Assembly (NCBI RefSeq): GCF_000007225.1
Contig: NC_003364.1
Span: 1,320,001-1,352,000 of the forward strand
Source of the DNA: Pyrobaculum aerophilum str. IM2
Lineage (GTDB): Archaea; Thermoproteota; Thermoprotei; Thermoproteales; Thermoproteaceae
Direction of reading: 5' to 3'
Length of the DNA: 32,000 bases
A program made the position numbers and the translations under genes. Each line of letters begins with the position of its first letter. Within the stretch, counting starts at the first letter, position 1. Positions 1,151 through 28,116 of the stretch are shown piece after piece. Below the pieces are notes generated by a model. That model saw only the letters and a program-made list of their open reading frames with translations, did not search any database and was not told where the DNA came from.

Positions 1151-1871
1151 CCTCTTTAGGCACGCCGTGGAGGTTTTCACCATAGAGCACTGCCCTGCCA
1201 GCTAGCCACAATAGAGTATCTAAGTGTAGAGGGGGGATGCCGGTCTCCCTCGCCACGGCATCCCATATTTTTTGCACTGCCTCATAGCGGCGTAAGGCTT
1301 CCTCGGGGGGAAAATCTATTAGGCCTGCGCACCAAGTAAGACGGGCGACTCTGTAGTCAACGGGTATGGGGATGTCAAACGGCAAGACTCTATTAACGCC
1401 TCTACTACACATATAGGCATAGTTCAGTATTTTTATCGTGAAAACCAAGGTCTTTTGCTCGCGTCTGGCTCCTACAATGTGCGAAAGTTGGCGTAGTGTA
1501 AGACCTAGGTCTTCAAGATTTGGCACATAGTCGCATGCCTTCAATGCCCTCTTCTTCCTGGCCTCCACGCCAATTTTAAGAAAAGGGCTTGTCTCTATGT
1601 ACTTAAGGAAATCTCTGCACAAGTCTATAACTTCCAGCTGGGAGAAATACTTCCCAAAATACTCCCAATGCTCCTCCCCCTTACCAGTGAGTCTATAACT
1701 TATTAACGCGTTTAACATAGCTAGCCTTGATCCCACAGTCTCTCCGTGTCTTTTTACGACGTTGCATACGGCGCGGTATTGCGGGTCGCGCCTTTCTAAC
1801 TTCAAAACCTCCTCTATGCCCAAACGTCTTAACGTCTCAATTACTCTTTTTAATTGCGACTCTGCGGCCAT
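1101..1871 (-). CDS. agog: AGOG-type 8-oxoguanine DNA glycosylase/AP lyase (archaeal GO glycosylase, HhH superfamily)
   Basis: 256 aa. The sequence (MAAESQLKRVIETLRRLGIEEV...GARREQKTLVFTIKILNYAY...PIPVDYRVARLT...) matches my memory of Pyrobaculum aerophilum Pa-AGOG, which is also 256 aa. The start overlaps the PriL stop by 35 nt. Confidence 0.85.
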   Translation of the reverse strand: MAAESQLKRVIETLRRLGIEEVLKLERRDPQYRAVCNVVKRHGETVGSRLAMLNALISYRLTGKGEEHWEYFGKYFSQLEVIDLCRDFLKYIETSPFLKIGVEARKKRALKACDYVPNLEDLGLTLRQLSHIVGARREQKTLVFTIKILNYAYMCSRGVNRVLPFDIPIPVDYRVARLTWCAGLIDFPPEEALRRYEAVQKIWDAVARETGIPPLHLDTLLWLAGRAVLYGENLHGVPKEVIALFQWRGGCRPPSE

Positions 1872-2886
1872 ATTGTAGTGGGTTCTTTACTCCACAGCCG
1901 AGATTTGTAGGGCACAGCCCCCAAGAGTTCATAGTTTCACAATTTGGCACGGCGTATTCCTTCCTCCCGCCGACTTGTCCCGCTATATGTTGTACTTGGT
2001 AACGGGTGATTTTCTCATTAAAATCGGGAGATGTACGAAAGAGATCTACTATTTGCTCTACCTCCCAGCCCTTGTGTAATAAATAAGTCGCTATAGCAAA
2101 CCTCGCCGCGTGGGGGAGATTTTCGCCGGCTTTTAAGGCGTCTAATATGGCTTTCATGCACGGGGGATCTGGCCCCTCAGTTGATAGCTTTGTGATGTTA
2201 ACAGGCCTTTGTGCGTATTTTCTCAACAAATCCTCTATAAGCGACATGTCTATTGACGCTGAGACTCTGCCCACAGCGAGTTCGTTTTCACTTGCTATTC
2301 TCAGAATTTGTTCTTCGTACGCCTCTTCAAGTATTCTCTCAAAGTCGTCAAGAGGGAGGATTACCCACCCCTTGACGACGACTCGATTAATCATTGCCCA
2401 AAACGGGTCTGGAGGCGCATATCTCAAGTAAGAAGTCCACTTAATTGCGACCGGCGTTTTAAACGCGGCGTTGATTATGCCCGTCACGACGTCTTGAGCG
2501 GGTTTTGCGATTATCCCAAGATCTTTCCCTATTTCGATTTTACAGTTCAAATTTTGAATGCCTGGAGTTTTCCTCAGCGTTTCTGAGAAATTCTTACTTT
2601 CGCTGTCGGCAAACCTCTTTAAGATATAATTGTTTTTCGTAGCTGCGGCGATATATAACGCAAGTCTGGCCGCTACGGCCTCTTCTTCAGGCGAGTCTAG
2701 ACACAGCCTGAGGTTGTAAGGCTCGCGGGACAGCGACTTCCTCAGCCTCGCTATAGATCTCTCAATTAGGCTCTTGTCTTGTAACACTATATCTAAGACG
2801 AATCCTCTTTTCGAAAGGTAAGAGGACGATTTGTTCAGAAATGGAAAGTAACACGCAAGTTCTCTACTCGACACATCACAAGTCAC
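1837..2886 (-). CDS. priL: DNA primase large (regulatory) subunit PriL
   Basis: 349 aa. The C-terminal Fe-S domain pattern is PPCM...LPHAARFAIATYLL..W..E.I..LF...PDFNEKITRYQVQHIAG..GGRKEY.VPNC..M...GLCP...C, which is characteristic of archaeal/eukaryotic primase large subunits. Confidence 0.85.
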   Translation of the reverse strand: MTCDVSSRELACYFPFLNKSSSYLSKRGFVLDIVLQDKSLIERSIARLRKSLSREPYNLRLCLDSPEEEAVAARLALYIAAATKNNYILKRFADSESKNFSETLRKTPGIQNLNCKIEIGKDLGIIAKPAQDVVTGIINAAFKTPVAIKWTSYLRYAPPDPFWAMINRVVVKGWVILPLDDFERILEEAYEEQILRIASENELAVGRVSASIDMSLIEDLLRKYAQRPVNITKLSTEGPDPPCMKAILDALKAGENLPHAARFAIATYLLHKGWEVEQIVDLFRTSPDFNEKITRYQVQHIAGQVGGRKEYAVPNCETMNSWGLCPTNLGCGVKNPLQYGRRVAIKKSN

Positions 2887-2917
2887 ATATTATTATAGTT
2901 GGCATATTTAAGCCACG

Positions 2918-4021
2918 TCACATATGGAGACTTAAAAGATCTACTGTAAGCGTCAGCTCTCTGTACTTACCGCCAGTTATTTTAGCTATTTGTCTTAAGA
3001 GCTGGCTTTTCTCCGTGGCCACTACGTGTATTCTTTTAAATCTACGGGAGAGTTGTAACACTTTCTCAGAATCGCTTGTCCTTCCGTCTGAGATTATGAC
3101 TACATCGCCCCGCGCGCCGTAATAATGGAGAAGCTCTAATGCAGAGGCCAGCTCTGTGCCGCCCATGGCGTATACATATCGTAATATCTCTAACATCTCG
3201 CGTAAATATCTATGTGCGGGATGAGGAGTCCATAAAAAATCCGCGTTTACGTTAAATAAAACTAGCGACACAGAGCCGCGTAAACTCGCCATTTGGCGTA
3301 AATACCTCGCTATAACGGCCTTTGCCACTCTAAGCTTAGTGGCCCTTCCCATGTACTCCTTCATTGAGCCAGACACGTCGAGGGCTACGTATACTGGTTT
3401 GTCTATGACATAGGTATACTCGTGGAGATAGAAGTCGTCGTCTGAAATAGCCTTACCTTGAATTGACTTCCTCGTAATAGATGTAGCGGTCCGAATCATG
3501 TCAATATCTGCGATTGAGGCATTGGGGTAATACCTCTTTATCCCCCTCACGGCGGACTTAACTGAAATTAATCCCTCGCCTCGGGCGGAAATTTTGTTTT
3601 TAAACTCCTCAATGGCCTCGGCGGGCAGGCCTAGCCTTTTTATTACGTTGAGTTTAACCCGCGGAGTGGCATCTACGGGGACGTGTTTATTAACTAAATG
3701 CGCAAGAGTCGGCGCCTTCTCATCTCCTATAGATCCAGTTGGGAGCGACATGGAGACCTCCTTGGCATAGGTACCGGCGCATAAAATGCCGGCTTCAACA
3801 ATCCGCTTGGCCTCGCTGGGCGTCACGCCGAGAAAGCCCGCCAAATTCTGCGCAATGATTTCTAACAGCTTATTCTCATCCACCTCACCTAAATGAGATC
3901 TCGCGTAAACGTCGGCGACAGCATATATCAAACTGCGCAGAGAAACTCCGTCTAAACAATCACTAAGCGTTAAAATGAGCTCAACTAAGTCATTCATGGA
4001 GAGATTTATCAAAAATTTCAA
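2918..4021 (-). CDS. von Willebrand factor A (VWA) domain protein, partner of the MoxR ATPase
   Basis: 367 aa. A MIDAS-type motif (VALDVSGSM), then GGTELASALELL and VVIISDGRTSD lie in the C-terminal half. The ORF overlaps the MoxR gene by 32 nt, or 8 nt if the internal ATG at 3997 is the start. Confidence 0.8.
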   Translation of the reverse strand: MKFLINLSMNDLVELILTLSDCLDGVSLRSLIYAVADVYARSHLGEVDENKLLEIIAQNLAGFLGVTPSEAKRIVEAGILCAGTYAKEVSMSLPTGSIGDEKAPTLAHLVNKHVPVDATPRVKLNVIKRLGLPAEAIEEFKNKISARGEGLISVKSAVRGIKRYYPNASIADIDMIRTATSITRKSIQGKAISDDDFYLHEYTYVIDKPVYVALDVSGSMKEYMGRATKLRVAKAVIARYLRQMASLRGSVSLVLFNVNADFLWTPHPAHRYLREMLEILRYVYAMGGTELASALELLHYYGARGDVVIISDGRTSDSEKVLQLSRRFKRIHVVATEKSQLLRQIAKITGGKYRELTLTVDLLSLHM

Positions 4022-4958
4022 GTAATGTGTTTTTAACCTCGGGATCGTAAGGCAAATTAGACGACAGGGCTTTTCTTAAATCGCGGATTCCCACCTCTTT
4101 ACGCTGAGACCACGCCATTGCTGCGGCATCAGCCAATGCGTAGCTTAAAGATCTCACAGACTGTGGATACCCCGCCTTCACGGCCTCGTGGGCAAATTTG
4201 GCAAGTATGTCGGCAAGGCGTGGGGGTATCTCCACTTCTAACTCGCCCAGTGCCTCTTTTGCCTTCCAGATGAGTATAGATCTGAGGAGTTCTCTGCTTG
4301 GAATTTTCACCTCTACGAACTTCATTCTATCTGCGAGGGCTTCAGTAAGTTCATACACCCCCTCATACTCAGCGGGATTCGCCGTTCCTATCAGGGCGAA
4401 ATCCGTTCGAATTCTATACCCTCTTATGTAGACGTAGTGTTCTTGTATGGCTTGTAATAATGCCGCCTGAGCATAGGGATTGAGTCTATTTATCTCGTCC
4501 ATTATTAAAACAGAGCCGTGGGCCATGACTAAAGGGCCTGGTATATAAGAGAGCGGGTGGTCAAAACCTGCTTGTAACACCACTGCGATGTCGATATCCC
4601 CCGTTAAATCTACTGCAGTCATATGGGAGTGACAAGCGACCTCCACATAAGGCGGGTCGCTGATGGCGAGGACCTCGGCTAAAGTCTCTGCCAGAGTCGT
4701 CTTTCCGAGACCTACAGGGCCTATTAATACCACAGGCCTGCCAATCATAATGCCGCTCAAAACGTCTAAGACGACGTCATCAAGCCCTTTTAGGACTTTG
4801 CCGATTTTAGCCGTAATTTCATCTACGCCGATTTTCCTTACTCTATCTCGTACAATTTTTGCCACTTCTATTGGCTTTCGTTGCAACAGCTCAGATAAGC
4901 GCACGTATATACACGGTAGATTATTTAAAAGGATATACAGGAGGCGGGTTGAGAACAC
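3990..4958 (-). CDS. MoxR-family AAA+ ATPase
   Basis: 322 aa. Walker A is LIGPVGLGKTTLA and Walker B is VLIMDEINR. The following NPYAQAALLQAIQE...ANP pattern is typical of the MoxR/RavA clade. GTG start. Confidence 0.85.
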   Translation of the reverse strand: MFSTRLLYILLNNLPCIYVRLSELLQRKPIEVAKIVRDRVRKIGVDEITAKIGKVLKGLDDVVLDVLSGIMIGRPVVLIGPVGLGKTTLAETLAEVLAISDPPYVEVACHSHMTAVDLTGDIDIAVVLQAGFDHPLSYIPGPLVMAHGSVLIMDEINRLNPYAQAALLQAIQEHYVYIRGYRIRTDFALIGTANPAEYEGVYELTEALADRMKFVEVKIPSRELLRSILIWKAKEALGELEVEIPPRLADILAKFAHEAVKAGYPQSVRSLSYALADAAAMAWSQRKEVGIRDLRKALSSNLPYDPEVKNTLLEIFDKSLHE

Positions 4959-4989
4959 AATTAAAAACTAACAGTGTTGACAACTACGT

Positions 4990-6267
4990 ATGTCAATACG
5001 CGTTTTAAAAGCCGGCGATGTATACAGAATAGAGGGCCCCGCCAAAGTGGTGGTGAGAAGGGGACAAGTCTATGCAACAGGCGTTGTCTATACAGAGGGG
5101 CAGAGTTTCACAGTGCTCAGAGCTCGCAGGCTTGTAATAAAGGCGTTGTCCGAGTCAGAGGTGGAGCTCGTGTTAGGGCCGGGGGCGTTGTTAGAAAGGG
5201 TAGATCCCAGAGAGGAGATTATTGACGAATGGGAAAGCAAAACTGCAAGCATAGATCCGAAAGGGGTTATAGTGATAGTGGGGATGATTGACGTGGGGAA
5301 GTCCACAATGACTGCCATGTTAGGCAATAAGGCGCTTGCTCGGGGTTACAAAGTGGCTATAATAGACGCTGACGTGGGCCAAAACGACTTGGGCCCTCCT
5401 ACTACAGTTTCATTGGCGAGGCTCACTAAGTATATTACTCATCTTCGGCAACTAGTGGCTGAGAAAAGCATTTTTCTCCAAGCTACAAGCTTAGAGCGCA
5501 TCTGGCCGCGGGCAATTGAACAAATAGCAAGGGCTGTAGATTTCGCAAAGAGATCGTGGCAAGTAGACACCATTATACTTAATACTGACGGCTGGGTGCT
5601 CGACGAAGAAGCAGTCGTATTTAAGCGTAGGCTAATAGATGTAATTAAGCCGTCGTTAATAATCGCAATTCAAGTGGAGAAGGAATTGGCCCCCGTGCTT
5701 GACGGGTATAACAACGTAGTAGTACTCCCCCCGCCTCCCCAAGTCAGGTCCCGGTCGCGGGAGGACAGGAAAATACACAGGGAAATGGGGTACGGACGCT
5801 ATATATTTCCCCCAGTGGAGCTGGCTATACCTCTTGATAAAATACCAATATGCAATTTACCTATTTTTAAGGGCATTGAAATAGGCGATGAGCTTAAGAG
5901 AATTCTCGCCAGGGCTATAGGCACGGGAGTTTTAAAGGCATATCAAGTGGGCAATAGAGTATACGCTATAATTGAAAACGACGCCTGGGTGGTGAGAAGA
6001 GTCAGCGGTTTCCAAGTAATTGGATTACCAATAGATTTTGAAAAAGGACTGCTTGTAGGGCTTGAAGACGCTGAACACTTCCTAGTTGGGCTAGGCGTGA
6101 TGAAGCGAATATATTATGATCGGAGAAAGGCCATAATATATACATCTAGTGAGGTTGAGAGAAGAATAGGAGAGGTAAAATGCATCAGACTGGGCTTAGT
6201 GAGGCTGGACGATAACTTCAACGAGGTAGAAAAAGCGTATAGTCTGCTGAAGGTCGAGCACGAATAG
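4990..6267 (+). CDS. Clp1/Grc3-like polynucleotide 5'-hydroxyl kinase
   Basis: 425 aa. The P-loop is VGMIDVGKSTM, followed by IIDADVGQNDLGPP, the paired signature of the Clp1 kinase family. A TATA-like AATTAAAAAC lies about 25 nt upstream of the ATG. Confidence 0.75.
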   Translation: MSIRVLKAGDVYRIEGPAKVVVRRGQVYATGVVYTEGQSFTVLRARRLVIKALSESEVELVLGPGALLERVDPREEIIDEWESKTASIDPKGVIVIVGMIDVGKSTMTAMLGNKALARGYKVAIIDADVGQNDLGPPTTVSLARLTKYITHLRQLVAEKSIFLQATSLERIWPRAIEQIARAVDFAKRSWQVDTIILNTDGWVLDEEAVVFKRRLIDVIKPSLIIAIQVEKELAPVLDGYNNVVVLPPPPQVRSRSREDRKIHREMGYGRYIFPPVELAIPLDKIPICNLPIFKGIEIGDELKRILARAIGTGVLKAYQVGNRVYAIIENDAWVVRRVSGFQVIGLPIDFEKGLLVGLEDAEHFLVGLGVMKRIYYDRRKAIIYTSSEVERRIGEVKCIRLGLVRLDDNFNEVEKAYSLLKVEHE

Positions 6268-6299
6268 CGAGAAAAACTTATAACTGAGGAGTATATTCG

Positions 6300-6360
6300 C
6301 AATAAATGAGCGGAGCGGGCAGCCCCTGAATATAATGAGGACACCATCTCAAGGCGATTA
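6300..6360 (+). ncRNA. Candidate C/D-box sRNA with non-canonical terminal boxes
   Basis: C-like AUGAGCG is at 6306-6312, a 13-nt spacer follows, and D' CUGA is at 6326-6329. After a 5-nt spacer comes C' AUGAGGA at 6335-6341, then a 12-nt spacer and D-like GCGA at 6354-6357. C positions 5-6 (GC) can pair with D positions 1-2 (GC), which preserves the K-turn stem. A TATA-like CTTATAAC lies about 24 nt upstream. The element fills the 90-nt gap between convergent genes. Confidence 0.4.
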
Positions 6361-7122
6361 TACGTTAATAATGTCACTTAATAAGCCCACGAAGGTGAAG
6401 TCTGGGAGGTATATCTCAACGTTATCCGGGTTCCACTCAACGTATTTTAGGAACGTGCGCCCCTCGGCGGCTAATTGAGGTATTTCCCTCACGTCGACCC
6501 CTGTTATTAACGGATGGCTGGCCGGGAGTACGACGACTTTTAATCTTCCCCGTCTTTTACAGGGCTCATCGTACAACGCCTTGCAGATTTTGGCGCGAGA
6601 AGTGGTGATTTTAAGTATAGCTGGCTCTTTAACTGCGTATCCAAGCTCATCCCGTATGACTACAGCTGGGTGTGTGTGTCCCATGACTACAGTGTCTGCC
6701 TTCTCTAAGTCCTCTTTGGTAGGTTTAACGTGTCCGTGGAAGAGGAGGAATTTCTTAATGAGAATCCCCCTAGTTGGCGCAATTTCCACGCCCTCTATAC
6801 CATTAGCTATCTCGTGAAGAAGAGAGTCGTGGTTTCCCGGGATTAAAATTAGCGGTGCCTTCTTGGCAACGGCCTTTAAGAACATCCTCACTTCCTCGGC
6901 GCTTTCGCGGGGCACTGGAAGCTCGTGTTTAACGTCGCCTAGTATCACCACAGAAGTGGCGCCGTAGTAATCAACCAGCTCCACAACGCCGTTTATAAGC
7001 CTCTGCGTCTGGCTCATTACGTTTATTCCCTTTACCCTTCTCAGTTCCACTTCATAACCTACGTGCGTGTCCGCTAGTAACAAGATTTTTTCACGGCGGA
7101 GTGGCAACAAGATGCCGCGCAC
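6358..7122 (-). CDS. Calcineurin-like metallophosphoesterase (ICC/MJ0037-like)
   Basis: 254 aa carrying all the phosphoesterase motifs: LLADTHVG, ILGDVKHE, IPGNHD, LFHGH and MGHTHP. The listed GTG start overlaps the upstream ParA-like gene by 49 nt. An internal TTG around 7083 just before ...LLLADTH would reduce the overlap to 10 nt. Confidence 0.8.
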   Translation of the reverse strand: MRGILLPLRREKILLLADTHVGYEVELRRVKGINVMSQTQRLINGVVELVDYYGATSVVILGDVKHELPVPRESAEEVRMFLKAVAKKAPLILIPGNHDSLLHEIANGIEGVEIAPTRGILIKKFLLFHGHVKPTKEDLEKADTVVMGHTHPAVVIRDELGYAVKEPAILKITTSRAKICKALYDEPCKRRGRLKVVVLPASHPLITGVDVREIPQLAAEGRTFLKYVEWNPDNVEIYLPDFTFVGLLSDIINV

Positions 7123-7652
7123 GCTCCATTAGCTTTCTGAGTTTTAATATTTCCAGCCTCTCTAAATATCTCAACGGCGGCTTTCGCCATATCAATAGTA
7201 GCCATTGATCGAATTTTGTAGGGTGGAATGCCGACGGCTCTATGAACTGCCATCTCTTCATCAAAGCGCACTATATAAACCTCGCCCAGTTTGCTGTACA
7301 GCTTTACAAACTCTTTACTGGGCCGTCTGACGATTTTATTCACGACGACGCCTAACACCTCTTTTCTAGCCAATGTGTGTATCAGCTCTACCGCCGCCAG
7401 GGTCTGGTAATCCTCGTCCACGACATATACAAGCGCATTGCAACGCAACAGCGCTTCTAAATGGCGCTTGTCGTTAAGAGTAAAGGCGGGGAAGTCAATA
7501 ACAGACATGCCGTTGTTGACAGACTTGGCAAACGGCTTCGTGAGGGCCACAGGCGCTCCTAATGCCTTCCATACATAGGCGAGTATTTCAGCGAAAGTAG
7601 TCTTACCGGTTCCGCCCTTGGAGCCGCTGGTGATACAAATTTTCACACTCAC
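7074..7652 (-). CDS. Small ParA/MinD-family P-loop ATPase
   Basis: 192 aa. It has the deviant Walker A with signature lysine (SGSKGGTGKTT) and downstream VIDFPA / VYVVDED aspartate motifs. GTG start, with a TATA-like CTTTTATAGG about 30 nt upstream on the minus strand. Confidence 0.75.
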   Translation of the reverse strand: MSVKICITSGSKGGTGKTTFAEILAYVWKALGAPVALTKPFAKSVNNGMSVIDFPAFTLNDKRHLEALLRCNALVYVVDEDYQTLAAVELIHTLARKEVLGVVVNKIVRRPSKEFVKLYSKLGEVYIVRFDEEMAVHRAVGIPPYKIRSMATIDMAKAAVEIFREAGNIKTQKANGACAASCCHSAVKKSCY

Positions 7653-7967
7653 ATCACAGATATTAAGCCACCTATAGGTGCCTATAAAAGAATATTGAAA
7701 TGTGGAGAGGGAATTTCTAGAAGGGTATATAGATTTGGCGGAGTATGCGAGAATTTACTATTTAACGAAGCGAAATCCCCTACTCCGCATTCCTCCTGTA
7801 CTGTCTTTATACCTTAGGCTCTTCTCCCGAAAATATCGCCGTATGGAGGCGCGTACGTGAGTGTAGAACGCCAATGTGGCGTTCATCTGTGCCCGAAGTT
7901 TGGCGACGCGCGAAAACAGCGTCCTCGACGTAATTTCATTTTTAATATAGTGCTAGATAGAGGAAAT

Positions 7968-8468
7968 GTGATACGCCGTTGTACTGCTTCAGATGTGCCT
8001 TATATACTAGAAATTGAGCGCAAGTCGTTTAAGCCAGAGGATATTTACAGCGACGAGCTTTTGAAGTTTTTATGTGCCTACTGCAACGACTACTCCTATG
8101 TCTATGTATTAAACGGCACTGTGGCCGGCTATATTATTACATGCCACGAGGGCAACGCGGCGCACGTGATTTCAATAGCAGTGGCGCCCGAATACCGCAG
8201 ACGCGGCATAGGAAAGCGTCTGTTGTGCACAGCTCTGAGACTCATGGCTACTGGAAAAGTATCTGAAGTCTTCCTAGAGGTTAGAGTTAGCAACGCGCCA
8301 GCGCTACATTTGTACAAATCAGCGGGGTTTGAAGTGGCAGAGTTCTTAAAGTCGTATTACAGCGATGGAGAAGACGGCTATAGGCTAGTGCTTAGAGACA
8401 GGGAAAAAGCCAGGAAATTCTGCGTAAGGGAGTTAGAAATGCAAGGAGGAATTCAGACTAGGGCGTAG
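7968..8468 (+). CDS. GNAT N-acetyltransferase (RimI/Ard1-like protein N-alpha-acetyltransferase)
   Basis: The acetyl-CoA motif is IAVAPEYRRRGIGKRLL, with NAPALHLYKSAGF downstream. I prefer the in-frame GTG at 7968 (VIRRCTASDVPYILEIE...). A TATA-like TTTTAATATAG sits about 25 nt upstream, and the 37-aa extension from 7857 looks non-protein-like. Confidence 0.8.
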   Translation: MIRRCTASDVPYILEIERKSFKPEDIYSDELLKFLCAYCNDYSYVYVLNGTVAGYIITCHEGNAAHVISIAVAPEYRRRGIGKRLLCTALRLMATGKVSEVFLEVRVSNAPALHLYKSAGFEVAEFLKSYYSDGEDGYRLVLRDREKARKFCVRELEMQGGIQTRA

Positions 8469-8553
8469 AGCGATCAACGCGCTTTTGGTTGTGGGGGTTC
8501 AGCAACTAGTATTTTATCTGTAGTGAATATTAAGAGGAAAGCCTCTCATATAA

Positions 8554-11412
8554 GTGTACGCCTTCGTTGATCTGCCTTTTAGTCCCAGCGGCGTTACGCA
8601 CTTAATACGCCGTCATAAGTCAGTGGGCTTCGAGAGAGAGTTGAAAGAGCTGTATGAGGTATTAAAAGCGGCCAGGGAGGGCAATAACAACGTATTGGCC
8701 GTCATAATAGCGCCGTATGGGTGGGGGAAGAGCGAGCTCTTAGACGAGTTAGAGGCGCTGGCCGAGAAGGAGGGGTTTGACATATATAGAACGGCGCTAT
8801 CCCTAGAGGGAGAGTTTACTATAGATATCGCGTTGAAAAAGCGGAATAAGCCTATGCTTGTGTTAATAGACGAAGCTGATGAGCTCTCTCGCATTGTTGC
8901 AGTGCACAAACTGGGCGTGTTGGGCGATGAGAAATTTGTCAAAACAGTGCAAAAAGTCGCCACTTATATAAGAGCTTTGCTAGAGCCTAGATCTTATAAA
9001 AACATCCTGGGCGATCCCGAGAGATTTAATAAAATAGCTATAGTAGTGGCCCTAACGCCACAGTTGTATTATACTATTTTAAAAAATGTAGTACCAGATG
9101 TATTTGATATAACTAGTGGTAGAGTGTATAGAGAAATTATAATAGATACCAGATTTCCATTTTGGCAATTTGTCGAAGTTGTAAAACAGAGGCTGTTGGC
9201 CTATTCAGACACGGAGAGAGTTAGGGAGATAGAAAGAGGCAAGATAGACCTCCTCACTCCCTTTACATTATACGACTTGGCGGCAGTATACCACTTGGCT
9301 AAAAGGCGAGGCGAGGTGGCCCCCAGGCCTCTTCTAAAGCTCATGGCAAGGCTTTTCCAAATTAAGAAAGAAGGCGGCAGGCTGGCGCATTTACTAAGAG
9401 AGGAGGGGTTTAACCCAGACTTAGACGATGAAATTTTAGAAATAGTCTTCGCGGCTATACCAGTTGAACACAAAAAGCCATATTTAAAAGAAGTATATCT
9501 ATATAAAATACCATTTGAAGACAAGGAGGCATTAAACATAGCAAGGGAATATTTAGTAGTCAGGGGTAAAGAACTTGACATAAAAGATCCTAAAAACGTA
9601 TCATATGAGCCGTATCTATACTATTCGCTTATAGAAGACGGCCGCCTTTTCGTCTACTTAATAGCGGAAGAGAATTTAGGCATCGAAAAGTACCTAGTTG
9701 GCAAGAGGTACGTAGTCGCTGAGGATGTGGCAAAGCTCGTTGGCTGGGAGGAGGCCCAATCCGTCGCCATAGTTGCGAAGGAGTTGAGCCAGAGGCTTGA
9801 GAGCCCAATAGCCCTGTTGGAAGAGGCAGAACGGGCGTTAGGCATAGAAGGCGTGAAGCTGAGGCGATGTTGCGGATATGCCACATGGTCAAATAAAATG
9901 GGAGTGCGCGAAGCTTACCTCTTTCTCTACGTAGACCGGGAGGACGAGTTAAAGCGGGTTGTGGAAGAGCTGGCTGAAGTAGTGTCGCAAGGAGTTATAA
10001 ATGGTTATGTCGTGGACTATTTAAACGTCCTCCTCGTAAGCCGGGTCTTGCTCACAGAGACTATTCAACAAGCCACATCGCCTTTAATGTCGGCGTATTG
10101 GAAACGCCTATTTCCAGATCCCGTCTCTAAGTTTACAACCCTTGAGATCTACGGCGCAGACAAGTATGAAAAACTGAAGCAACAGTTAATTAAATACGCA
10201 GTTGATAAGATCTTAAAGAGGGGGGAAAAGCCGCCTGAATTCGTAGACGCGGTGATGCTCGGGAGGGAAAGGGCGAGGGAGAATGTGCTCAAATACACAC
10301 TAGCTTTGAAAAAAGGAAAGGAGAAAAAGGCTATAGCGCTTATCAAATTAGCTGAGGCCCTTGAAGAGGGGGGAGAGGTAGAGGGCCTTAAGGCCTACCG
10401 CGAGATAGAAGAAATATTACTAAACGCGTTTGAAGACTCTATTCACGAAAAGGAGTTTAAGTCATTAATAAACACGCTATTCCCCGTTAACTTATGGAGG
10501 GAAATTAGAGAGGACGATGTAGTGGAGTTAATGAAGCTGAGAGGGCAAATAATCCCTATTGGCGACAGGCTTTACAAATATAGAGAGGATTTGGCAAAAC
10601 GCTATATGTCAGAGGTCTTGCGCCAGTTAGAAGCCCTGAGAGAAGTGAAAGTAGAGAGGCAGACGCCGGCAGGCCCTATAAAACTAGTAAGAGTATTAGA
10701 CATTGGCGAGATAGAGGCCGCGTTCACGGACAAGAAAAGCTACGCAAAGGCTTTAAGAGAGGCGTTATTAAAGCTCCAGGTAATAAAGGAAAAATACAAC
10801 GAAATAAAAACAGAGCTAGAGCGAGAGACAGAGGAGAAGGCGAGATTAATCAAAAGAATGTATTCTCTGCTGGAAAAGTTTCCCCAGAGGAGGAAATTCG
10901 TAAACCTCGAAAAATTAGATGAGGAGATTGTGAGGAGAGAAGAGGCCATTGCCCAAAAGACAGAAGAAGCCTTACATGTGTGGAGCGGAATTAAACACAT
11001 GGCCAGCGCAGTTGGGTCGCGGCTAGACGTGGAGAGAGACTTGGCAGTATTATTAGAGTTGCCCGAGCCCTGGATAGCCGACTACGTGGCAGTGCTGAAA
11101 ATTTACTCCTCAGAGCTCGAGAAAAAATACGCGCTATTCTTGGAGAAAGAAAAAGCGAAAAAAACCGCGTTAGAATGGCTGAAATCGAAATTCGGAGTAG
11201 AAAGCGAAGATATAGATACTGCGTTAACTACAGTGGCTACTAAGATTGGCGTGAATATAAAACTACTCGAGGCTGTTGCCAAGAGGGGGAAAGGAGCCGT
11301 TCTTGAAGTAGATCAGCTCGCCGTAGAGACCGGCCTCAAAAAAGAGGAGGTAGAGAGAGAGCTAGAAAGGCTTTACAAGGCTGGCGCAGTGGAGAAGAAA
11401 TATGTCGCTTAA
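8554..11412 (+). CDS. Large P-loop NTPase (ORC/Cdc6-, Arch_ATPase- or BrxC/DUF499-like N-terminus) with a long helical/coiled-coil body and a C-terminal winged-helix-like tail; function unknown
   Basis: 952 aa. Residues 25-40 (GFERELKELYEVL) resemble the 'GRE.EL..L' lead-in of archaeal STAND/ORC-like ATPases. Walker A is APYGWGKSEL (residues 53-62, about nt 8710-8739) and Walker B is MLVLIDEADEL (residues 101-111, about nt 8854-8886). Residues about 730-880 are heptad-like and E/K/L-rich. The C-terminus ...LAVETGLKKEEVERELERLYKAGAVEKKYV looks like a wHTH. GTG start. Confidence 0.8.
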   Translation: MYAFVDLPFSPSGVTHLIRRHKSVGFERELKELYEVLKAAREGNNNVLAVIIAPYGWGKSELLDELEALAEKEGFDIYRTALSLEGEFTIDIALKKRNKPMLVLIDEADELSRIVAVHKLGVLGDEKFVKTVQKVATYIRALLEPRSYKNILGDPERFNKIAIVVALTPQLYYTILKNVVPDVFDITSGRVYREIIIDTRFPFWQFVEVVKQRLLAYSDTERVREIERGKIDLLTPFTLYDLAAVYHLAKRRGEVAPRPLLKLMARLFQIKKEGGRLAHLLREEGFNPDLDDEILEIVFAAIPVEHKKPYLKEVYLYKIPFEDKEALNIAREYLVVRGKELDIKDPKNVSYEPYLYYSLIEDGRLFVYLIAEENLGIEKYLVGKRYVVAEDVAKLVGWEEAQSVAIVAKELSQRLESPIALLEEAERALGIEGVKLRRCCGYATWSNKMGVREAYLFLYVDREDELKRVVEELAEVVSQGVINGYVVDYLNVLLVSRVLLTETIQQATSPLMSAYWKRLFPDPVSKFTTLEIYGADKYEKLKQQLIKYAVDKILKRGEKPPEFVDAVMLGRERARENVLKYTLALKKGKEKKAIALIKLAEALEEGGEVEGLKAYREIEEILLNAFEDSIHEKEFKSLINTLFPVNLWREIREDDVVELMKLRGQIIPIGDRLYKYREDLAKRYMSEVLRQLEALREVKVERQTPAGPIKLVRVLDIGEIEAAFTDKKSYAKALREALLKLQVIKEKYNEIKTELERETEEKARLIKRMYSLLEKFPQRRKFVNLEKLDEEIVRREEAIAQKTEEALHVWSGIKHMASAVGSRLDVERDLAVLLELPEPWIADYVAVLKIYSSELEKKYALFLEKEKAKKTALEWLKSKFGVESEDIDTALTTVATKIGVNIKLLEAVAKRGKGAVLEVDQLAVETGLKKEEVERELERLYKAGAVEKKYVA

Positions 11413-11917
11413 AGTTATAGTGCTCACAGAGGGCGTTGCTGTGAGGGAAGAGGGAGATGTGATTATTGACGCCGCTGGACAGCCACAGTTTTTTGACGTG
11501 ATAATCTTAAGCGGTAAGGAGTTGAAGTCCATTGTGGCAACAGGCGTTGTAAACATCGGCGTGCCTATCGGCATAGGGAAGTATACGAAAAAGCCCGTGG
11601 CTGCCGTGGTAGGCGATAAGGTATACATCAAGGGTATACCGTTGACGCTATATAAAGAGACGGGGATGTTGGAGAGGGAATTGGCAGAGGCGTTAAAAAA
11701 GACTGGCAATGAGACAGAGGCGGTGTTAAAAAAACTTAAAGAAATCGTCATTTCAGAAAGGCGGCGTCATAAAAAGTCGCATACATTATCTATACTAAGC
11801 AAATATATATCGGGCGAAATAGACGAATTGCCCCCGCACTTGGCAGATATCGTGGGGAGCCTCGATAAGGACTCTCTTAGGAGCGTCTTTGAGAAATTAG
11901 TAGAGGATGTGTATTAA
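11402..11917 (+). CDS. Hypothetical protein, middle gene of the ATPase-NurA operon
   Basis: 171 aa. The ATG overlaps the upstream stop by 11 nt, and its TAA shares one nt with the downstream ATG (TAATG). The N-terminal ~90 aa are beta-rich and the C-terminal ~80 aa are helical. No family was recognised. Confidence 0.6.
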   Translation: MSLKVIVLTEGVAVREEGDVIIDAAGQPQFFDVIILSGKELKSIVATGVVNIGVPIGIGKYTKKPVAAVVGDKVYIKGIPLTLYKETGMLERELAEALKKTGNETEAVLKKLKEIVISERRRHKKSHTLSILSKYISGEIDELPPHLADIVGSLDKDSLRSVFEKLVEDVY

Positions 11918-12663
11918 TGCGCGACCTTCTCTCACAGCTCCTGAGATTTGCTGAGCTGGAATATACTTTAAGGAAATTAGAGGTGCCTGAAGCGTTGAGA
12001 AAACTAGTCGTTCCGTGTGAAAGCGAAGACAAGCCAGACTACTACGCCGTTGATTCCGGCTATGTCGTGCAAAAAATTGGCTCCTTTGACGTTTTAATTC
12101 AGTCTATTGTCGCGGTGGGGAGAGAGGTTAGAAGGAGGTTTTTAATTAAAAAGGTGGTTGAGGATGTACATACTGAGGCTAGGAGGCGGGAGATACGTTT
12201 TGCCGAATCAATTGACGCAGATATCGTCCTCGTTGACGGGCCGCTAACGCCGTACGTGGGCGTTACAAGGGTAATTGGAGTTTCAAAAGATCCGAGGCTT
12301 GTTAGATACGGTCCTAGAATAGAAGACGACGCGACGAGAGATCTATTTGTAAGGCTCTCTAAGAGGTGGGGAGAAAGAGAGGTGGCAGGCGCGTTGCTGG
12401 CAAGCGTCCCTGCGGGATCCTACCTCTTGCCGGTTGACATAGGCGGTTTACGTGGCACTTTTTTCAAAAGCGAATGGGTGTTATATGTAGAATTTCCAAA
12501 AAATCTATCGGCAGATGCGCTGTGCGCCTTGTTTAAGAGATATCCAGTGAGGCTTAGAGTGGCGCACCACCTCGCCAAGATCGGCAGGGAATATGTAAAA
12601 AGCGTGAGGGCAGTTCTGTCATCTCTTATGGGCGCTTCTCTACACTTTAGAGATATACTATGA
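11917..12663 (+). CDS. NurA-like nuclease (minimal RNase-H-like NurA domain)
   Basis: 248 aa. The ordered motifs are YYAVDSGY (D46), TEARRRE (E87/E92), IVLVDGPLTPY (D107), IGVSKD (K124) and RYPVRLRVAHHLAKI (H217/H218). They match the D-E-D-H catalytic layout and the 'aiDgS ... llDGsL ... gvSK ... YP..L..AH..a' pattern I know from the NurA family. It is much shorter than characterised NurA proteins. Confidence 0.65.
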   Translation: MRDLLSQLLRFAELEYTLRKLEVPEALRKLVVPCESEDKPDYYAVDSGYVVQKIGSFDVLIQSIVAVGREVRRRFLIKKVVEDVHTEARRREIRFAESIDADIVLVDGPLTPYVGVTRVIGVSKDPRLVRYGPRIEDDATRDLFVRLSKRWGEREVAGALLASVPAGSYLLPVDIGGLRGTFFKSEWVLYVEFPKNLSADALCALFKRYPVRLRVAHHLAKIGREYVKSVRAVLSSLMGASLHFRDIL

Positions 12664-12798
12664 CCCTTTGTAAATGTAAACTAACTGTGCAAGCGCCATG
12701 TTAATACAATCGTCAAGCGAATCAAAGTTATATCTCTTGCATATTTTATATAGTTGTTCTAATTCTTCCTCCGAAAGAGGAATTATAACTTGTTCCAT
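12658..12798 (-). CDS. Small ribbon-helix-helix (CopG/Arc-like) protein, not in the supplied ORF track
   Basis: My translation gives MEQVIIPLSEEELEQLYKICKRYNFDSLDDCINMALAQLVYIYKGS* (46 aa), a beta-strand followed by two helices as in RHH proteins. A TATA-like GGTATATAATTC (12816-12827, minus strand) is centred about 24 nt upstream of the ATG. The stop overlaps the NurA-like gene's 3' end by 6 nt. Confidence 0.55.
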   Translation of the reverse strand: MEQVIIPLSEEELEQLYKICKRYNFDSLDDCINMALAQLVYIYKGS

Positions 12799-14065: not shown

Positions 14066-14535
14066 TCTCATTGGAAACTCTTCTGTATTTAATACAGGGG
14101 GAGAGAGTGCTTCTCATTCTGAAGAAAAGAGGGCTTGGCAAAGGGCTTTTCAACGGCGTTGGCGGGAAGGTAAAGCCAGGAGAGACGCCTGAGCAAGCCG
14201 TCGTAAGAGAGGCCGAGGAGGAAATAGGCGTGAAGCCTATACAGCTGAGCTGGAGGGGGTTATTAGAGTTCTGGAATTTAGAAAACGGACAGGTTGAGTC
14301 AATACATTACGTGCACGTCTATGTGTCTGAAAAATACGTGGGCGAGCCGCGGGAAAGCGACGAAGCGGCGCCCCTGTGGTTTGAAAAAGGGAATATCCCC
14401 TACGATAGAATGTGGGAAGATGATCGCCTCTGGTTACCTGTCGTGCTAGATGGGAAGAGGGTCTATGGTAAGTTTGAATTTGAAGATTGGAAATTAAGAA
14501 AATGGATAGTTTACTTACTTCAACAAACTGGCTAA
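14062..14535 (+). CDS. Nudix hydrolase (MutT-like)
   Basis: 157 aa with a complete Nudix box, GGKVKPGETPEQAVVREAEEEIGV. The start overlaps the aminotransferase stop by 4 nt. Confidence 0.85.
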   Translation: MISLETLLYLIQGERVLLILKKRGLGKGLFNGVGGKVKPGETPEQAVVREAEEEIGVKPIQLSWRGLLEFWNLENGQVESIHYVHVYVSEKYVGEPRESDEAAPLWFEKGNIPYDRMWEDDRLWLPVVLDGKRVYGKFEFEDWKLRKWIVYLLQQTG

Positions 14536-15078
14536 CTTCGCCTTTATTTCGCTTAGTTCACTCCTCAGCCTCTCGACTTCTTGTTTCAACCTGGCGTTCT
14601 CCTCGGCTAGTTCTTTACACTCTTTTGGAGCTGTTGCCTGTTGGCAGCGATCGCTTCTAACCCAATAGTAAAGCTCAGTTTTATCTTTTCGCCAGCGCAA
14701 CTCCCCCGTGTTTATGTCCAGTTCTATTTCCGTAATTATCATAAATATATCGCCTTTATCCAAGCCGTATTTAGGCGCCTGTTCGTTGAAAAACCACTCT
14801 TTAATTGCGTCAAACATTTCCTTACTGGATTTCTTAAACTCATCTGAGTCTCTGATTTTGTTGAAAAGCTCTTCGCCCTGCGGGCCGAATTTCCCCCTCA
14901 GAGATCCAGCCAGTGCGCCAAAGAGCAGTCTGAAGAAGTCAGGGCGCCCGCCCGCCCCGTATCTCCCGAAGAGCCTGCCTGCAGACGTCTTTCCAGTATT
15001 CCAGCGAATTACGAGAACTTGCCTCCCCTCCCTCTCTTCAAGGTGTGCCCTTTCCACAGTCCGTTCCTCTTCCGCCAT
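14515..15078 (-). CDS. Hypothetical protein with a C-terminal coiled coil
   Basis: 187 aa. It has a globular N-terminal region followed by ...KELAEENARLKQEVERLRSELSEIKAKLASLL. No family was recognised with confidence. The 3' end overlaps the convergent Nudix gene by 21 nt. Confidence 0.6.
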   Translation of the reverse strand: MAEEERTVERAHLEEREGRQVLVIRWNTGKTSAGRLFGRYGAGGRPDFFRLLFGALAGSLRGKFGPQGEELFNKIRDSDEFKKSSKEMFDAIKEWFFNEQAPKYGLDKGDIFMIITEIELDINTGELRWRKDKTELYYWVRSDRCQQATAPKECKELAEENARLKQEVERLRSELSEIKAKLASLLK

Positions 15079-19623: not shown

Positions 19624-21180
19624 TTATGAGCTTCGTTGTCTGGTCGGCTTTTCCGCCCTCCACTTATCTACGGCGTCTCTCAGCGCCTTAAAGCGCCGCA
19701 GGGCGTCTAGCTGTTCGGCTAGGAGCCATACTTCGCCCCTCTTAGCCTTGCCTGTCAGCGCCTTTAACACGGCGGCCTCCATATCGTCCTTAACCCTTGG
19801 CCGTGCTGTTTCGTAGTAGTACGTGACTGTTGTTTTACCTCTCTTTTCCCGCTTCTCCGCCCAGCGCCACTCCACCTTCAGTTGCCTCCTCTCCCCTCCA
19901 GCCTCATACTCCGCGATTATGCGCAGGCGGCAACCCTCCCCAGCGCATTGGTTTACCACCTTGCCGTTTTCCACAAATTCATACCGCAGATCTACAACGC
20001 GGGCTATTATATTGCCCTTATCGTCGCGCACCTCCAGCGGCAGATCTATTGCCCCCTCCTCCCTCGCCGGCGTTAGAACCTCTATCAGCTTTTTCACCGC
20101 GTCATCGCCGTGGCGGCGCCTCAACACGTCCTCAAGATCCCTAATAAAGCGTTCTGCCTCCACATCGCCATTCAGCGCCATGCGCTGTATTTCCCTAAGG
20201 CCGTCGTAAGTGATGCGGATTATGTACTGTCCGTTCCACTTCGCCGCGAAGTGCTTTCCCTCCTCCAGCCCTGCCGCCTTCAAGGCGTTTACAACTGTGT
20301 CTTTGTGGTCTTTTTTAACGCGGATTTCGCGCCTTTTGCCGTAAACAGCGTAGTGCTCTTTTTCCTTCAGCCCGCTAAGGGCCTCTAACGCCTTGGCATA
20401 AAATTCGTCCGCAACGCGAATTTCGTAACCGCCGCGCTCTGTTACCGTAAAATGCTCGCCCTCCTTCAAACCCTTGGCCTTTAATGCGTTTAAAGCGGCG
20501 TTTTTAGAGGCCTCGCTACGCGGGTTGTATACTATCATTATGCTCTTCATCCCCGTCCCGTAATAGACCGAAAACTCCGCACCGGCGAGCTTCACAACGT
20601 TGGGGCCTGCGGCTACGTCCTTAACTAGCTGTTTATACCTCTCCTCGCCGATCAGCCCCCTGCCGTACAGCTCGTCCACAAAGCCCCTCACCGCGTTCAG
20701 CCAGCCGTCGTGACGAATTGCCGTAATGCCGTCAGTGGTGAGCCACACTACCCATCCCTCACCTACGCGCTTAACCTCAGCCTCGCCGCCTAGGGCCCTA
20801 ATAATAGAGGCCAGACGCTCGGCGTTTTCGCGAGAGCCGCGGAATTCGGCTAGTAGATATCTGCCAGTCCATTTCATGTTGATGTGTGCCACCACCTCCC
20901 CGCCCAACTTAAAGCGGATGACTGTCTTCGGGTAACTTCCGCTTGCATCCAACGGCCCTCTCTCCACTGTGACGTTCTTGTAGACGTAGTCATCGGCCAT
21001 TGTAATAATTTCGTTTAGCTTTTTGAAAAACCTTTCGTTTCTCACGTCATATGCCCAGTCAACGCCGTGTTTCTTTTTAATCGCCTCGCGTGTAACAACT
21101 TTAAACGAGTCAGCGAACTCGGTCAGGGTATCTCCAAGCTCGTACAGTGTGGACAACGCCGGCATTACCGCTTTCAGCAA
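19624..21180 (-). CDS. Repeat-containing hypothetical protein, probably of the Pyrobaculum-specific paREP2 family
   Basis: 518 aa. There are at least three internal ~35-aa modules of the same pattern: SRENAERLASIIRALGGEAEVKRVGEGWVVWL, SEASKNAALNALKAKGLKEGEHFTVTERGGYEIRV and DHKDTVVNALKAAGLEEGKHFAAKWNGQYIIRI. The paREP2 label is from memory of Pyrobaculum genome annotation and needs checking. Confidence 0.7.
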   Translation of the reverse strand: MLKAVMPALSTLYELGDTLTEFADSFKVVTREAIKKKHGVDWAYDVRNERFFKKLNEIITMADDYVYKNVTVERGPLDASGSYPKTVIRFKLGGEVVAHINMKWTGRYLLAEFRGSRENAERLASIIRALGGEAEVKRVGEGWVVWLTTDGITAIRHDGWLNAVRGFVDELYGRGLIGEERYKQLVKDVAAGPNVVKLAGAEFSVYYGTGMKSIMIVYNPRSEASKNAALNALKAKGLKEGEHFTVTERGGYEIRVADEFYAKALEALSGLKEKEHYAVYGKRREIRVKKDHKDTVVNALKAAGLEEGKHFAAKWNGQYIIRITYDGLREIQRMALNGDVEAERFIRDLEDVLRRRHGDDAVKKLIEVLTPAREEGAIDLPLEVRDDKGNIIARVVDLRYEFVENGKVVNQCAGEGCRLRIIAEYEAGGERRQLKVEWRWAEKREKRGKTTVTYYYETARPRVKDDMEAAVLKALTGKAKRGEVWLLAEQLDALRRFKALRDAVDKWRAEKPTRQRSS

Positions 21181-25812: not shown

Positions 25813-27476
<1,664 letters not shown>

Positions 27477-27489
27477 TGAATAGAGAGTT

Positions 27490-28080: not shown

Positions 28081-28087
28081 GGAAGAT

Positions 28088-28099: not shown

Positions 28100-28116
28100 C
28101 AGATTTATAAACAGGC

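Follow-up and report, generated by a model that had tools for sequence, protein, structure and literature searches.

A 32-kb stretch of the Pyrobaculum aerophilum str. IM2 genome (32,000 nucleotides, hereafter the window, in which positions are counted unless another locus is named) carries, between 8554 and 12663, three overlapping genes, here called g1, g2 and g3 and together the trio. They very probably represent an uncharacterised operon, conserved across the order Thermoproteales, for a large ORC-like AAA+ ATPase, an orphan protein and an active-looking NurA nuclease. Almost all that is known of NurA concerns its partnership with the HerA helicase in the resection of double-strand breaks in archaea. 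The trio is read here as a vertically inherited DNA-processing complex, which would serve as an accessory arm of the NurA-HerA machinery with HerA supplied in trans, and in genome maintenance more than in defence. A probability of roughly 0.5 is assigned to this composite reading. The genes and the putative promoter element are as follows.

8554-11412, plus strand: g1, open reading frame (ORF) with GTG start, 952 aa; putative AAA+ ATPase of a new family
11402-11917, plus strand: g2, ORF for a 171-aa orphan protein; shares 11 nt with g1 and 1 nt with g3
11917-12663, plus strand: g3, ORF, 248 aa; predicted minimal NurA nuclease
8526-8533, plus strand: TATA-like candidate promoter element AATATTAA, 21-28 nt 5' of the g1 GTG start

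Reading frames and junctions

Translation and direct reading of the junctions recovered all that the initial annotation, made from the sequence alone, had described here, namely three ORFs, an 11-nt overlap, a TAATG junction and each of the quoted motifs. The overlap of g1 and g2 lies at 11402-11412 (junction read directly as ATGTCGCTTAA and aaATGTCGCTTAAag), and the 1-nt overlap of g2 and g3 at 11917 is the TAATG itself (junction read directly as gtgtatTAATGcgc). Overlapping frames of this kind suggest translational coupling from g1 through g2 to g3. Gene order and tight junctions were retained together in 30 of 37 related loci, with a g1-to-g2 gap of usually -11 and a g2-to-g3 gap of -1, -4 or +1. 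This recurrence, and the invariance of the motif residues within each family, show that the layout and the motifs amount to more than chance. Upstream of g1, an AATAT(A/T)A block and the GTG start were both kept in seven aligned Pyrobaculum upstream regions. The TATA-like element would be the promoter of the g1 operon, and its spacing from the GTG start would imply a leaderless or near-leaderless transcript.

The NurA nuclease g3

g3 was matched by the Pfam NurA family (PF09376) at 72.4 bits (E=5.4e-20, cutoff 21 bits) over residues 41-222, corresponding to profile positions 2-254 of 254, and this domain was present in all g3 homologues. The motifs AVDSG, LVDGPL, GVSKD and YPVRLRVAHH were located in the translation at residues 44-48, 105-110, 121-125 and 209-218, respectively. 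A 23-member g3 profile matched Sulfolobus solfataricus NurA (2ygk) with E=6.3e-9, and the motifs of the g3 family and 2ygk were in register (VDSG/IDGG, LDGPL/MDGSL and GYPxPL..A[H]). The length of g3 is 248 aa, versus 339 aa for S. solfataricus NurA and 370-398 aa for the nearest HerA-linked NurAs; the proposal of the initial annotation that g3 is a NurA reduced to a minimal core was therefore upheld by the Pfam match, the 2ygk alignment and the length alike.

Among 23 g3 sequences from five genera, D46, E92, D107, G108, K124, Y209 and P210 were invariant. Position 217 was occupied by His in the Pyrobaculum and Thermoproteus sequences and by Asp in those of Vulcanisaeta and Caldivirga, so that the D/E/D/H set named earlier is conserved among homologues, with H or D at the last place. 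The g3 family has the catalytic set expected of a NurA, namely the motif I Asp (D58 in S. solfataricus NurA), a Glu, the Asp of the DG motif and a His or Asp downstream of GYPxPL. The catalytic candidates, all of them invariant columns (217 as H/D), are located as follows.

12052-12054, plus strand: D46 of g3
12190-12192, plus strand: E92 of g3
12235-12237, plus strand: D107 of g3
12565-12567, plus strand: H217 of g3

Judged by its sequence, g3 is a member of the NurA nuclease family with a conserved acidic/histidine catalytic set. An active RNase-H-like DEDH/D site is likely, because the catalytic residues are invariant and position 217 is H or D, and an RNase-H-like fold is suggested by the profile alignment to 2ygk.

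The large ATPase g1

The predicted architecture of g1 is listed below, with residue numbers in the protein.

8554-9453, plus strand: AAA+ module, residues 1-300, with lead-in, Walker A, Walker B and lid
8710-8739, plus strand: Walker A APYGWGKSEL, residues 53-62, with K59
8857-8886, plus strand: Walker B LVLIDEADEL, residues 102-111, with D106/E107
9454-10731, plus strand: middle region, residues ~301-726; mixed alpha/beta and helical domains (DSSP on the AlphaFold model)
10732-11193, plus strand: coiled-coil helices, residues 727-880; model helices 727-775, 790-820 and 841-880
11212-11403, plus strand: C-terminal winged helix-turn-helix (wHTH), residues 887-950; Pfam matches in the family, model helices 887-942

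The AAA+ module opens with a conserved N-terminal lead-in, FVDLPFSPSGV, followed by GFERELKEL at residues 25-33, and its lid carries the invariant R258. The other invariant columns of the family are P8, P11, G13, G56, G58, K59, D106, E107 and R190. The AlphaFold model of g1 has a predicted local distance difference test (pLDDT) score of 86. When the model was compared with the PDB by Foldseek, the best matches, over residues ~1-400, were ORC/Cdc6 proteins, followed by MuB, RuvB, Hda and clamp loaders. The E values were 6.7e-5 for 7jgr_G, 1.3e-4 for 8s0c_D and 2.2e-4 for 1fnn_A, the Cdc6 of P. aerophilum, with target-normalised template modelling (TM) scores of 0.37-0.45. The N-terminus of g1 is thus modelled as an AAA+ domain with an Orc1/Cdc6-like fold.

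Outside the AAA+ part, the middle region had no recognisable fold and no PDB match by profile search or Foldseek, and a PDB profile search over the coiled coil returned designed coiled coils only. About 650 aa of helical and heptad-like sequence had been described after the P-loop. According to the model, residues ~300-720 are mixed alpha/beta, and the coiled coil is confined to residues ~727-880 and followed by the winged helix at 887-950. The earlier view of g1, as a large P-loop NTPase that opens with an ORC/STAND-style lead-in and closes with a wHTH tail, agreed with the ORC/Cdc6 matches by Foldseek and with the wHTH matches in Pfam. Among the 23 members, the C-terminal wHTH was hit by MarR_2 in 11 (best 1.6e-6) and by TrmB in 9, and also by HTH_5 and HTH_24. 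A weak wHTH match directly after the lid was obtained in Vulcanisaeta and in remote members (TrmB, E~1e-4).

No Pfam or NCBIfam family reached its cutoff for g1. Weak Pfam signals recurred at the N-terminus, namely AAA_16 and nSTAND_NTPase5 (19 of 23 members each), AAA_22 and BrxC_BrxD (8 of 23). All 44 homologues of g1 came from Thermoproteales, and a HMMER profile scan of 1.84 billion representative proteins gave 43 g1 matches, nearly all of which were the family itself. g1 would accordingly define a previously undescribed ATPase family restricted to Thermoproteales.

The orphan protein g2

As the initial annotation had stated, g2 resembles nothing known: no match was obtained in Pfam, NCBIfam, PADLOC or the PDB, and none of its 18 homologues carried a Pfam domain. 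A P. aerophilum protein is 99% identical to g2. It sits between g1 and g3 in every locus with the trio. Across very divergent members E119, R120, S126 and a C-terminal Tyr were invariant, and the invariant Tyr suggests a docking tail. The g2 model, calculated from a shallow alignment, has a pLDDT of 69, with a beta-rich N-terminal half and a helical C-terminal half; Foldseek returned nothing below E=0.48 for it. Homology of g2 to the small proteins or the upstream ('up') proteins of the two remote clusters described below was considered and rejected (hhalign probability 0.6% or less).

Distribution and synteny

One genome per GTDB species was scanned for the locus. The 37 loci obtained (L001-L037) belong to Pyrobaculum, Thermoproteus, Vulcanisaeta, Caldivirga, Thermocladium and a few related metagenome-assembled genomes (MAGs), with never more than one per genome. 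By iterative hidden Markov model (HMM) searches, g1, g2 and g3 were adjacent and co-oriented in 30 of the 37 loci, in five genera; the synteny on which the initial annotation had staked its proposal therefore extends beyond the source genome. Identities of the three proteins fall in parallel, from ~60-70% within Pyrobaculum through 35-45% to Thermoproteus to 20-30% to Vulcanisaeta/Caldivirga, and g1, g2 and g3 thus co-diverge.

Among the seven exceptions, four contigs end before the downstream genes, L004 is rearranged, and L026 and L027 carry g1 without g2-g3. The L004 region (2704-10862, Thermoproteaceae MAG) has g2-g3 inverted, together with the small convergent ORF described below, and separated from g1 by ~4 kb on its upstream side; the gap holds three ~355-aa ORFs unrelated to the trio. 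L004 represents either a real rearrangement or a misassembly. g1 of L026 (395-4296) and L027 (7977-11873) is 1117 and 1123 aa long, respectively, and is followed by a small zinc-ribbon protein (CxxC...CxxC, basic tail), the small convergent ORF and LivG/LivF-type ABC ATPases; g2-g3 of these two MAGs may be located elsewhere or lost. JCM drafts of Vulcanisaeta and Thermocladium (L028, L030, L032, L035 and L036) have g1, and sometimes g2 and g3, split by frameshifts, which are probably sequencing or assembly errors and not signs of pseudogenes, because neighbouring genes are split too.

The flanks conserved in Pyrobaculum and Thermoproteus read MoxR-Clp1-phosphoesterase-MinD-GNAT, the trio, and aminotransferase-NUDIX-ThermoDBP. 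Window scans gave no tRNA, Rfam family, CRISPR array or cas gene near the trio. No relatives on mobile elements were found by a scan of viral contigs or by tblastn of g1 against plasmids and of g3 against phages. PADLOC-DB v2 gave no match for g2 or g3 and chance-level matches only for g1. Single-copy occurrence across the order, parallel identities, housekeeping flanks, the absence of mobile relatives and the negative PADLOC result point to a vertically inherited core operon and not to a defence island.

Remote relatives and HerA

The only remote matches of the g1 profile were P0114 and P0115 (~1220 aa), placed on contigs L038 and L039, which are archaeal, have 27-33% GC and, in one case, carry a PCNA-like gene. 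Both contigs have the order 'up' protein (~250 aa), large ATPase, 240/306-aa protein, NurA, HerA and TGT-like protein. An hhalign comparison of the g1 family with P0114/P0115 gave 99% probability and E=1e-17 over columns 4-296, which is the whole AAA+ module including the GF..PFsPsGVt lead-in, and the C-terminus of the L039 large protein matched the coiled coil and wHTH of g1 at 3e-15. The L038/L039 NurAs scored 74-80 bits on the g3 family HMM; the 38 bits of S. solfataricus NurA with which they were compared is a score on the related A4 profile from a separate search. Both contigs encode genuine HerAs, in which DUF87, HerA_C and HAS-barrel domains were recognised.

The 'up' family (~240-267 aa; L038 5257-6000, L039 4429-5181, L040 4012-4737 and L041 858-1661) always lies directly upstream of an ATPase with a g1-type N-terminus, either long (1218-1225 aa) or short (250-267 aa), and has no Pfam match except a weak MCM8 winged helix. 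The L038 cluster has HNH and RNase HII-Schlafen/AlbA genes at its flanks, and the L040 pair of 'up' and short g1-type ATPase lies between McrBC and a DUF4062/nSTAND gene, a setting like that of a defence island. Three kilobases upstream of its five-gene cluster, L039 carries a second, divergent pair (2-2394, minus strand) of a NurA with a weak PF09376 match and a HerA-like protein (DUF87, 486 aa). HerA adjoins a short TGT-like gene (queuine/archaeosine tRNA-ribosyltransferase family) in L038 (11516-14288), L039 (10985-13610) and L049 (2344-5062, Caldivirga), and genes downstream in L039 also include QueT and PCNA/Hus1-like ones. By this linkage the TGT-like protein might be a DpdA-like DNA transglycosylase.

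A metagenome scan with the large-ATPase alignment gave no matches. With a HerA probe, 80 loci were obtained, and in the closest of them a g3-type NurA gene once more immediately precedes HerA. The next-closest HerA loci (L049-L051) are from Caldivirga, and their HerA cluster includes WP_066797093.1 of Caldivirga sp. MU80, a genome in which the trio (L022) lies at another locus than HerA. The Caldivirga HerA has no adjacent NurA, and its convergent TGT-like neighbour is 31% identical to that of L038. For 72 HerAs a neighbour-joining tree was constructed from Poisson-corrected distances. The bootstrap support was 0.98 for the NurA-linked clade, 1.00 for the Caldivirga-containing clade and 0.79 for their sister relationship, in a tree that covers HerAs caught by two sequence patterns in metagenomes and, from Thermoproteales, a single one of the four HerA paralogues.

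Neither a HerA (by HMM) nor a TGT-like gene turned up within ±8 kb around the trio in any of the 37 loci, or elsewhere in the 32-kb window. The term 'HerA-less', applied to the trio earlier, holds at the locus and is valid only in cis, since the remote homologues of g1 and g3 share an operon with HerA and an orphan HerA, grouping beside the HerAs of those operons, is encoded in Thermoproteales genomes. For each Pyrobaculum genome three NurA-HerA pairs have been reported; a HerA group termed 'unmatched' (PAE2998, Pogu_0853, Vdis_0944 and others) occurs besides them in every Pyrobaculum and in Vulcanisaeta, where NurA-HerA partners can also be unlinked (Bernick et al. 2012, PMC3396285). The canonical herA-nurA pair looked for elsewhere in Pyrobaculum genomes is therefore present (PMC3396285, Table A2). 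Because the g1 homologue is Pogu_0218, away from the pairs of Pogu_1165, 1338 and 1515, the g3 NurA is absent from that table (PMC3396285).

The convergent small ORF

A further ORF, by its look unannotated, always adjoins g3 from the opposite strand.

12658-12798, minus strand: 46-aa ORF convergent with g3, sequence MEQVIIPLSEEELEQLYKICKRYNFDSLDDCINMALAQLVYIYKGS; its stop codon overlaps that of g3, the two ORFs sharing 6 nt

Its identity is 51-87% across Pyrobaculum and Thermoproteus, with C20, C31, A35 and G45 invariant. In the rearranged L004 it travels with g2-g3, and in L026/L027, where g2-g3 are missing, it stays beside g1. A longer form with a CHTGSxSSxxSSDxxNHPP tail occurs in the deeper lineages L026, L027, L029 and L037. 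By size and beta-alpha-alpha pattern the 46-aa ORF is possibly a ribbon-helix-helix (RHH) DNA-binding protein; the scores for this fold were not significant (Pfam RHH_1 E=0.11 in one member; CopG 2cpg E=0.45 by PDB profile, in register from residue 2). The small ORF probably encodes a fourth partner of the complex, or a regulator or accessory protein.

Proposed role and alternatives

ORC/Cdc6-type AAA+ proteins are nucleotide-controlled DNA-binding switches. By analogy with them, and because the protein has a confident C-terminal winged helix, joined in part of the family by a weaker one behind the lid, g1 may be the ATP-dependent subunit for DNA recognition, loading or licensing. In the proposed mechanism g1, g2 and g3 would form a stoichiometric complex, with g2 as the adaptor and g3 as the effector degrading DNA from ends or nicks. 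The trio may have arisen from an ancestral cluster of a ~250-aa protein, a g1-like ATPase, a small protein, NurA, HerA and a TGT-like protein, which would survive in uncultivated low-GC archaea, and from which the HerA(+TGT-like) part would have moved to another locus in Thermoproteales. g3 would then most likely still work with the orphan HerA motor encoded in trans, for which the 'unmatched' PAE2998 group is the obvious candidate, g1 and g2 would direct or gate NurA-HerA resection, and the small convergent ORF would provide a DNA-binding regulator or accessory. Because of the core-like distribution, a cellular role in genome maintenance (repair, or the processing of replication and recombination intermediates) seems more likely than antiviral defence.

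Several observations weigh against this composite reading. Only the gene overlap points to a complex of g1, g2 and g3. g2 has no similarity to the small proteins of L038/L039 (hhalign probability 0.1) and the 'up' family has no counterpart in Thermoproteales, therefore the trio and the L038/L039 clusters do not appear to be simply orthologous. The Caldivirga orphan HerA is the closest HerA to those of L038/L039 only provisionally, at a sister support of just 0.79, and membership of the Pyrobaculum orphan HerA (PAE2998 group) in the Caldivirga clade is an assumption. The shrinkage of NurA from ~380 aa to 248 aa in Pyrobaculum may have removed HerA-contacting or dimerisation elements, which would favour a HerA-independent mode. 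The HNH, Schlafen/AlbA, McrBC and DUF4062-STAND genes near remote g1 relatives hint at a defence ancestry.

One alternative is an autonomous machine in which g1 has replaced HerA as the ATP-driven partner of a minimised NurA, oligomerises on DNA and, with g2 as a bridge, feeds DNA to g3 without an FtsK/HerA-type translocase. We regard this as unlikely, though well worth entertaining. HerA is absent within ±8 kb in the 37 loci and from the window, g3 is ~90-150 aa smaller than HerA-linked NurAs, the coupling of the three genes is as expected of a self-sufficient complex, and the Foldseek matches of g1 include the AAA+ motors and filament formers RuvB and MuB besides ORC. However, HerA shares operons with the nearest relatives of both g1 and g3, an orphan HerA related to those of L038/L039 is present in at least one genome that has the trio, and ORC/Cdc6-like AAA+ proteins are usually switches and not processive translocases. 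Antiviral or anti-plasmid defence, with g1 as a STAND/BrxC-like sensor that activates the NurA effector through the adaptor g2 and has become fixed in the order, appears rather improbable. Weak AAA_16, nSTAND_NTPase5 and BrxC_BrxD signals at the N-terminus of many g1 members speak for it, as do the layout of ATPase, small protein and nuclease, which is typical of defence systems, and the small RHH-like ORF, a common regulator of such modules. Defence ancestry is kept open by three facts, namely the HNH and RNase HII-Schlafen/AlbA flanks of L038, the setting of the short ATPase of L040 between McrBC and DUF4062-STAND, and the TGT-like, possibly DpdA-like, gene linked to the HerA part. The defence reading of the initial annotation is nevertheless weakened, in that essentially all Thermoproteales genomes sampled have a single copy of the trio, its identities follow taxonomy, its flanks in Pyrobaculum and Thermoproteus are conserved housekeeping genes, and no homologues were found on viral contigs, phages or plasmids. 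Moreover, no PADLOC model matches g2 or g3, the g1 matches are at chance level, and the BrxC_BrxD match covers profile positions 18-92 of 414. It is hardly credible that g1 is a large wHTH transcription factor merely adjoining an unrelated NurA paralogue. The C-terminal wHTH matches and the NCBI name of P0013 from a MAG ('ArsR family transcriptional regulator') would fit such a factor, but the ATPase motifs are invariant, the frames overlap and are syntenic with g2 and g3 throughout the order, and the remote g1 homologues are linked to NurA too.

The role as an accessory arm of NurA-HerA in genome maintenance could be extended further. The trio would then be the visible half of an ancient NurA-HerA system ('up', ORC-like giant AAA+, small adaptor, NurA, HerA and TGT/DpdA-like protein), contiguous in uncultivated archaea and split and domesticated in Thermoproteales as a core genome-maintenance machine, in which the ORC-like ATPase licenses the nuclease on specific DNA structures or on DNA without a 7-deazaguanine-type mark. 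This extension is speculative and quite improbable; if true, the split system would stand between modification-dependent defence and housekeeping repair or chromosome processing. The trio would in any case add two new protein families, g1 and g2, with no Pfam, NCBIfam or PDB relative, and a new class of partner for NurA. It offers an explanation for the 'unmatched' Pyrobaculum HerA paralogue noted in 2012 (PMC3396285). The link to the larger HerA-containing cluster of uncultivated archaea supplies testable subunit predictions, and should g1 prove to be a loader or gatekeeper of a nuclease-helicase machine, a new way to control end resection would be at hand. Thermoproteales is the crenarchaeal order that also replaced the single-stranded DNA-binding protein (SSB; by ThermoDBP) and the Cdv division machinery (by crenactin), and the trio, kept in every sampled genus, adds to the lineage-specific solutions in DNA metabolism found there.

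Comparison with known systems

The trio is a nuclease module built around NurA, its partner ATPase family and its small subunit both being new, and is not a named system, in agreement with the initial annotation: PADLOC, Pfam, NCBIfam and the literature were negative for it. Within the library searched, no paper was found describing the trio or the expanded HerA-containing cluster. A 'NurA-like' mention in PMC9976892 was irrelevant to the trio. As a known defence system the trio was rejected by PADLOC, and the L038/L039 clusters matched generic HerA models only.

NurA is usually encoded in a herA-mre11-rad50-nurA operon of thermophilic archaea. With the HerA-NurA end-resection complex the trio shares the NurA family, with the catalytic D...E...D(G)...H/D motifs of g3 and S. 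solfataricus NurA (2ygk) aligned, and the L038/L039 relatives share the order of NurA immediately followed by HerA. The trio differs from the canonical HerA-NurA(-Mre11-Rad50) operon in that herA, mre11 and rad50 are absent from the operon and from ±8 kb in the 37 loci. No linkage of mre11 or rad50 to the trio was seen, the flanks being GNAT, aminotransferase, NUDIX and ThermoDBP genes (the phosphoesterase at 6358-7122 was not examined as an Mre11). Compared with S. solfataricus NurA, g3 is ~90 aa shorter, and its encoded partners are the 952-aa ORC-like AAA+ protein and the 171-aa orphan. The Pyrobaculum NurA-HerA paralogues belong to the same genomes and embody the same idea of specialised NurA paralogues; in contrast to those pairs, g3 is paired with an AAA+ protein and not with HerA, and no CRISPR arrays or cas genes lie nearby in the window (Bernick et al. 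2012, PMC3396285, for the pairs).

The structures most like g1 were those of Orc1/Cdc6 (1fnn) and the AAA+ loaders (MuB, DnaC/IstB-type, RuvB and clamp loaders), at Foldseek E values of 7e-5 to 1e-3, and the likeness to Orc1/Cdc6 extends to a Walker A/B AAA+ core with lid and to the wHTH domains of the family. g1 is 2.5 times longer than Orc1/Cdc6, with ~550 extra residues including the coiled coil, has the unique FVDxPFSPSGV lead-in and is coupled to a nuclease. Membership of g1 in ORC/Cdc6 by sequence was rejected; only sub-threshold AAA_16, AAA_22 and nSTAND5 signals were obtained, and the architecture is not the AAA+-WH one of ~400 aa.

BREX BrxC/PglY and STAND ATPases are, like g1, large (~1000 aa) with an AAA_16-like N-terminal ATPase lead-in; the distribution of g1 differs from theirs in being order-wide and core and not patchy. 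BrxC/BrxD (PF10923) was rejected for g1, as the 8 matching members of 23 (best 33 bits, 3.4e-8) align at profile positions 18-92 of 414 only, ~75 residues at Walker A. g1 of the window itself did not match PF10923, and no BREX genes (pglX, brxB or pglZ) were present in the neighbourhood. Rad50-Mre11 and Lamassu (LmuB and LmuA) had been cited as parallels, and the gross layout of large coiled-coil ATPase, small protein and nuclease is alike, by analogy only. The comparison has no structural basis, since g1 is modelled as an AAA+ protein of ORC/Cdc6-like fold, and the nuclease of the trio is NurA and not Mre11 or Cap4. An SMC/Rad50/Lamassu assignment of g1 was rejected because its N-terminal AAA+ fold is contiguous and not ABC/SMC, and because the PADLOC LmuB match (E=0.011) covers residues 579-905, in the coiled-coil region only.

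Neighbouring genes in the window

Upstream of the trio lie a MoxR-type AAA_5 ATPase (3990-4958), preceded by co-oriented ORFs at 1837-2886 and 2918-4021, and a Clp1-like P-loop kinase (4990-6267); throughout Pyrobaculum the MoxR and Clp1 genes keep their synteny with the trio. Two genes separate the trio from the calcineurin-like phosphoesterase gene (6358-7122), which lies on the other strand. The GNAT acetyltransferase gene (7857-8468, plus strand) is directly upstream of g1 in the window, whereas all other Pyrobaculum/Thermoproteus loci have it in the reverse orientation, so that it points away from g1. Its orientation is a single-gene inversion specific to the P. aerophilum genome of the window, which leaves the TATA-like box and GTG start of g1 unaffected; no relevant inverted repeats were found flanking the inverted gene.

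ThermoDBP is the SSB replacement specific to Thermoproteales. Its gene (14515-15078, minus strand; ssDBP_DBD E=2e-60) is 2 kb downstream of the trio and syntenic in Pyrobaculum and Thermoproteus. Other neighbours in the window include a radical-SAM protein and a full-length PaRep2b gene (19624-21180, minus strand, E=2e-271), PaRep2b being a repeated family typical of P. aerophilum. Further off, ~13 kb downstream of the trio, is the crenactin ('arcade') cluster (25813-30649), with an actin-family protein at 26178-27476 flanked by small ORFs. The same cluster carries a 794-aa, arcadin-4-like SMC_N/AAA_23 protein (28265-30649), which is the sole SMC_N protein in the window and is 15 kb from the trio.

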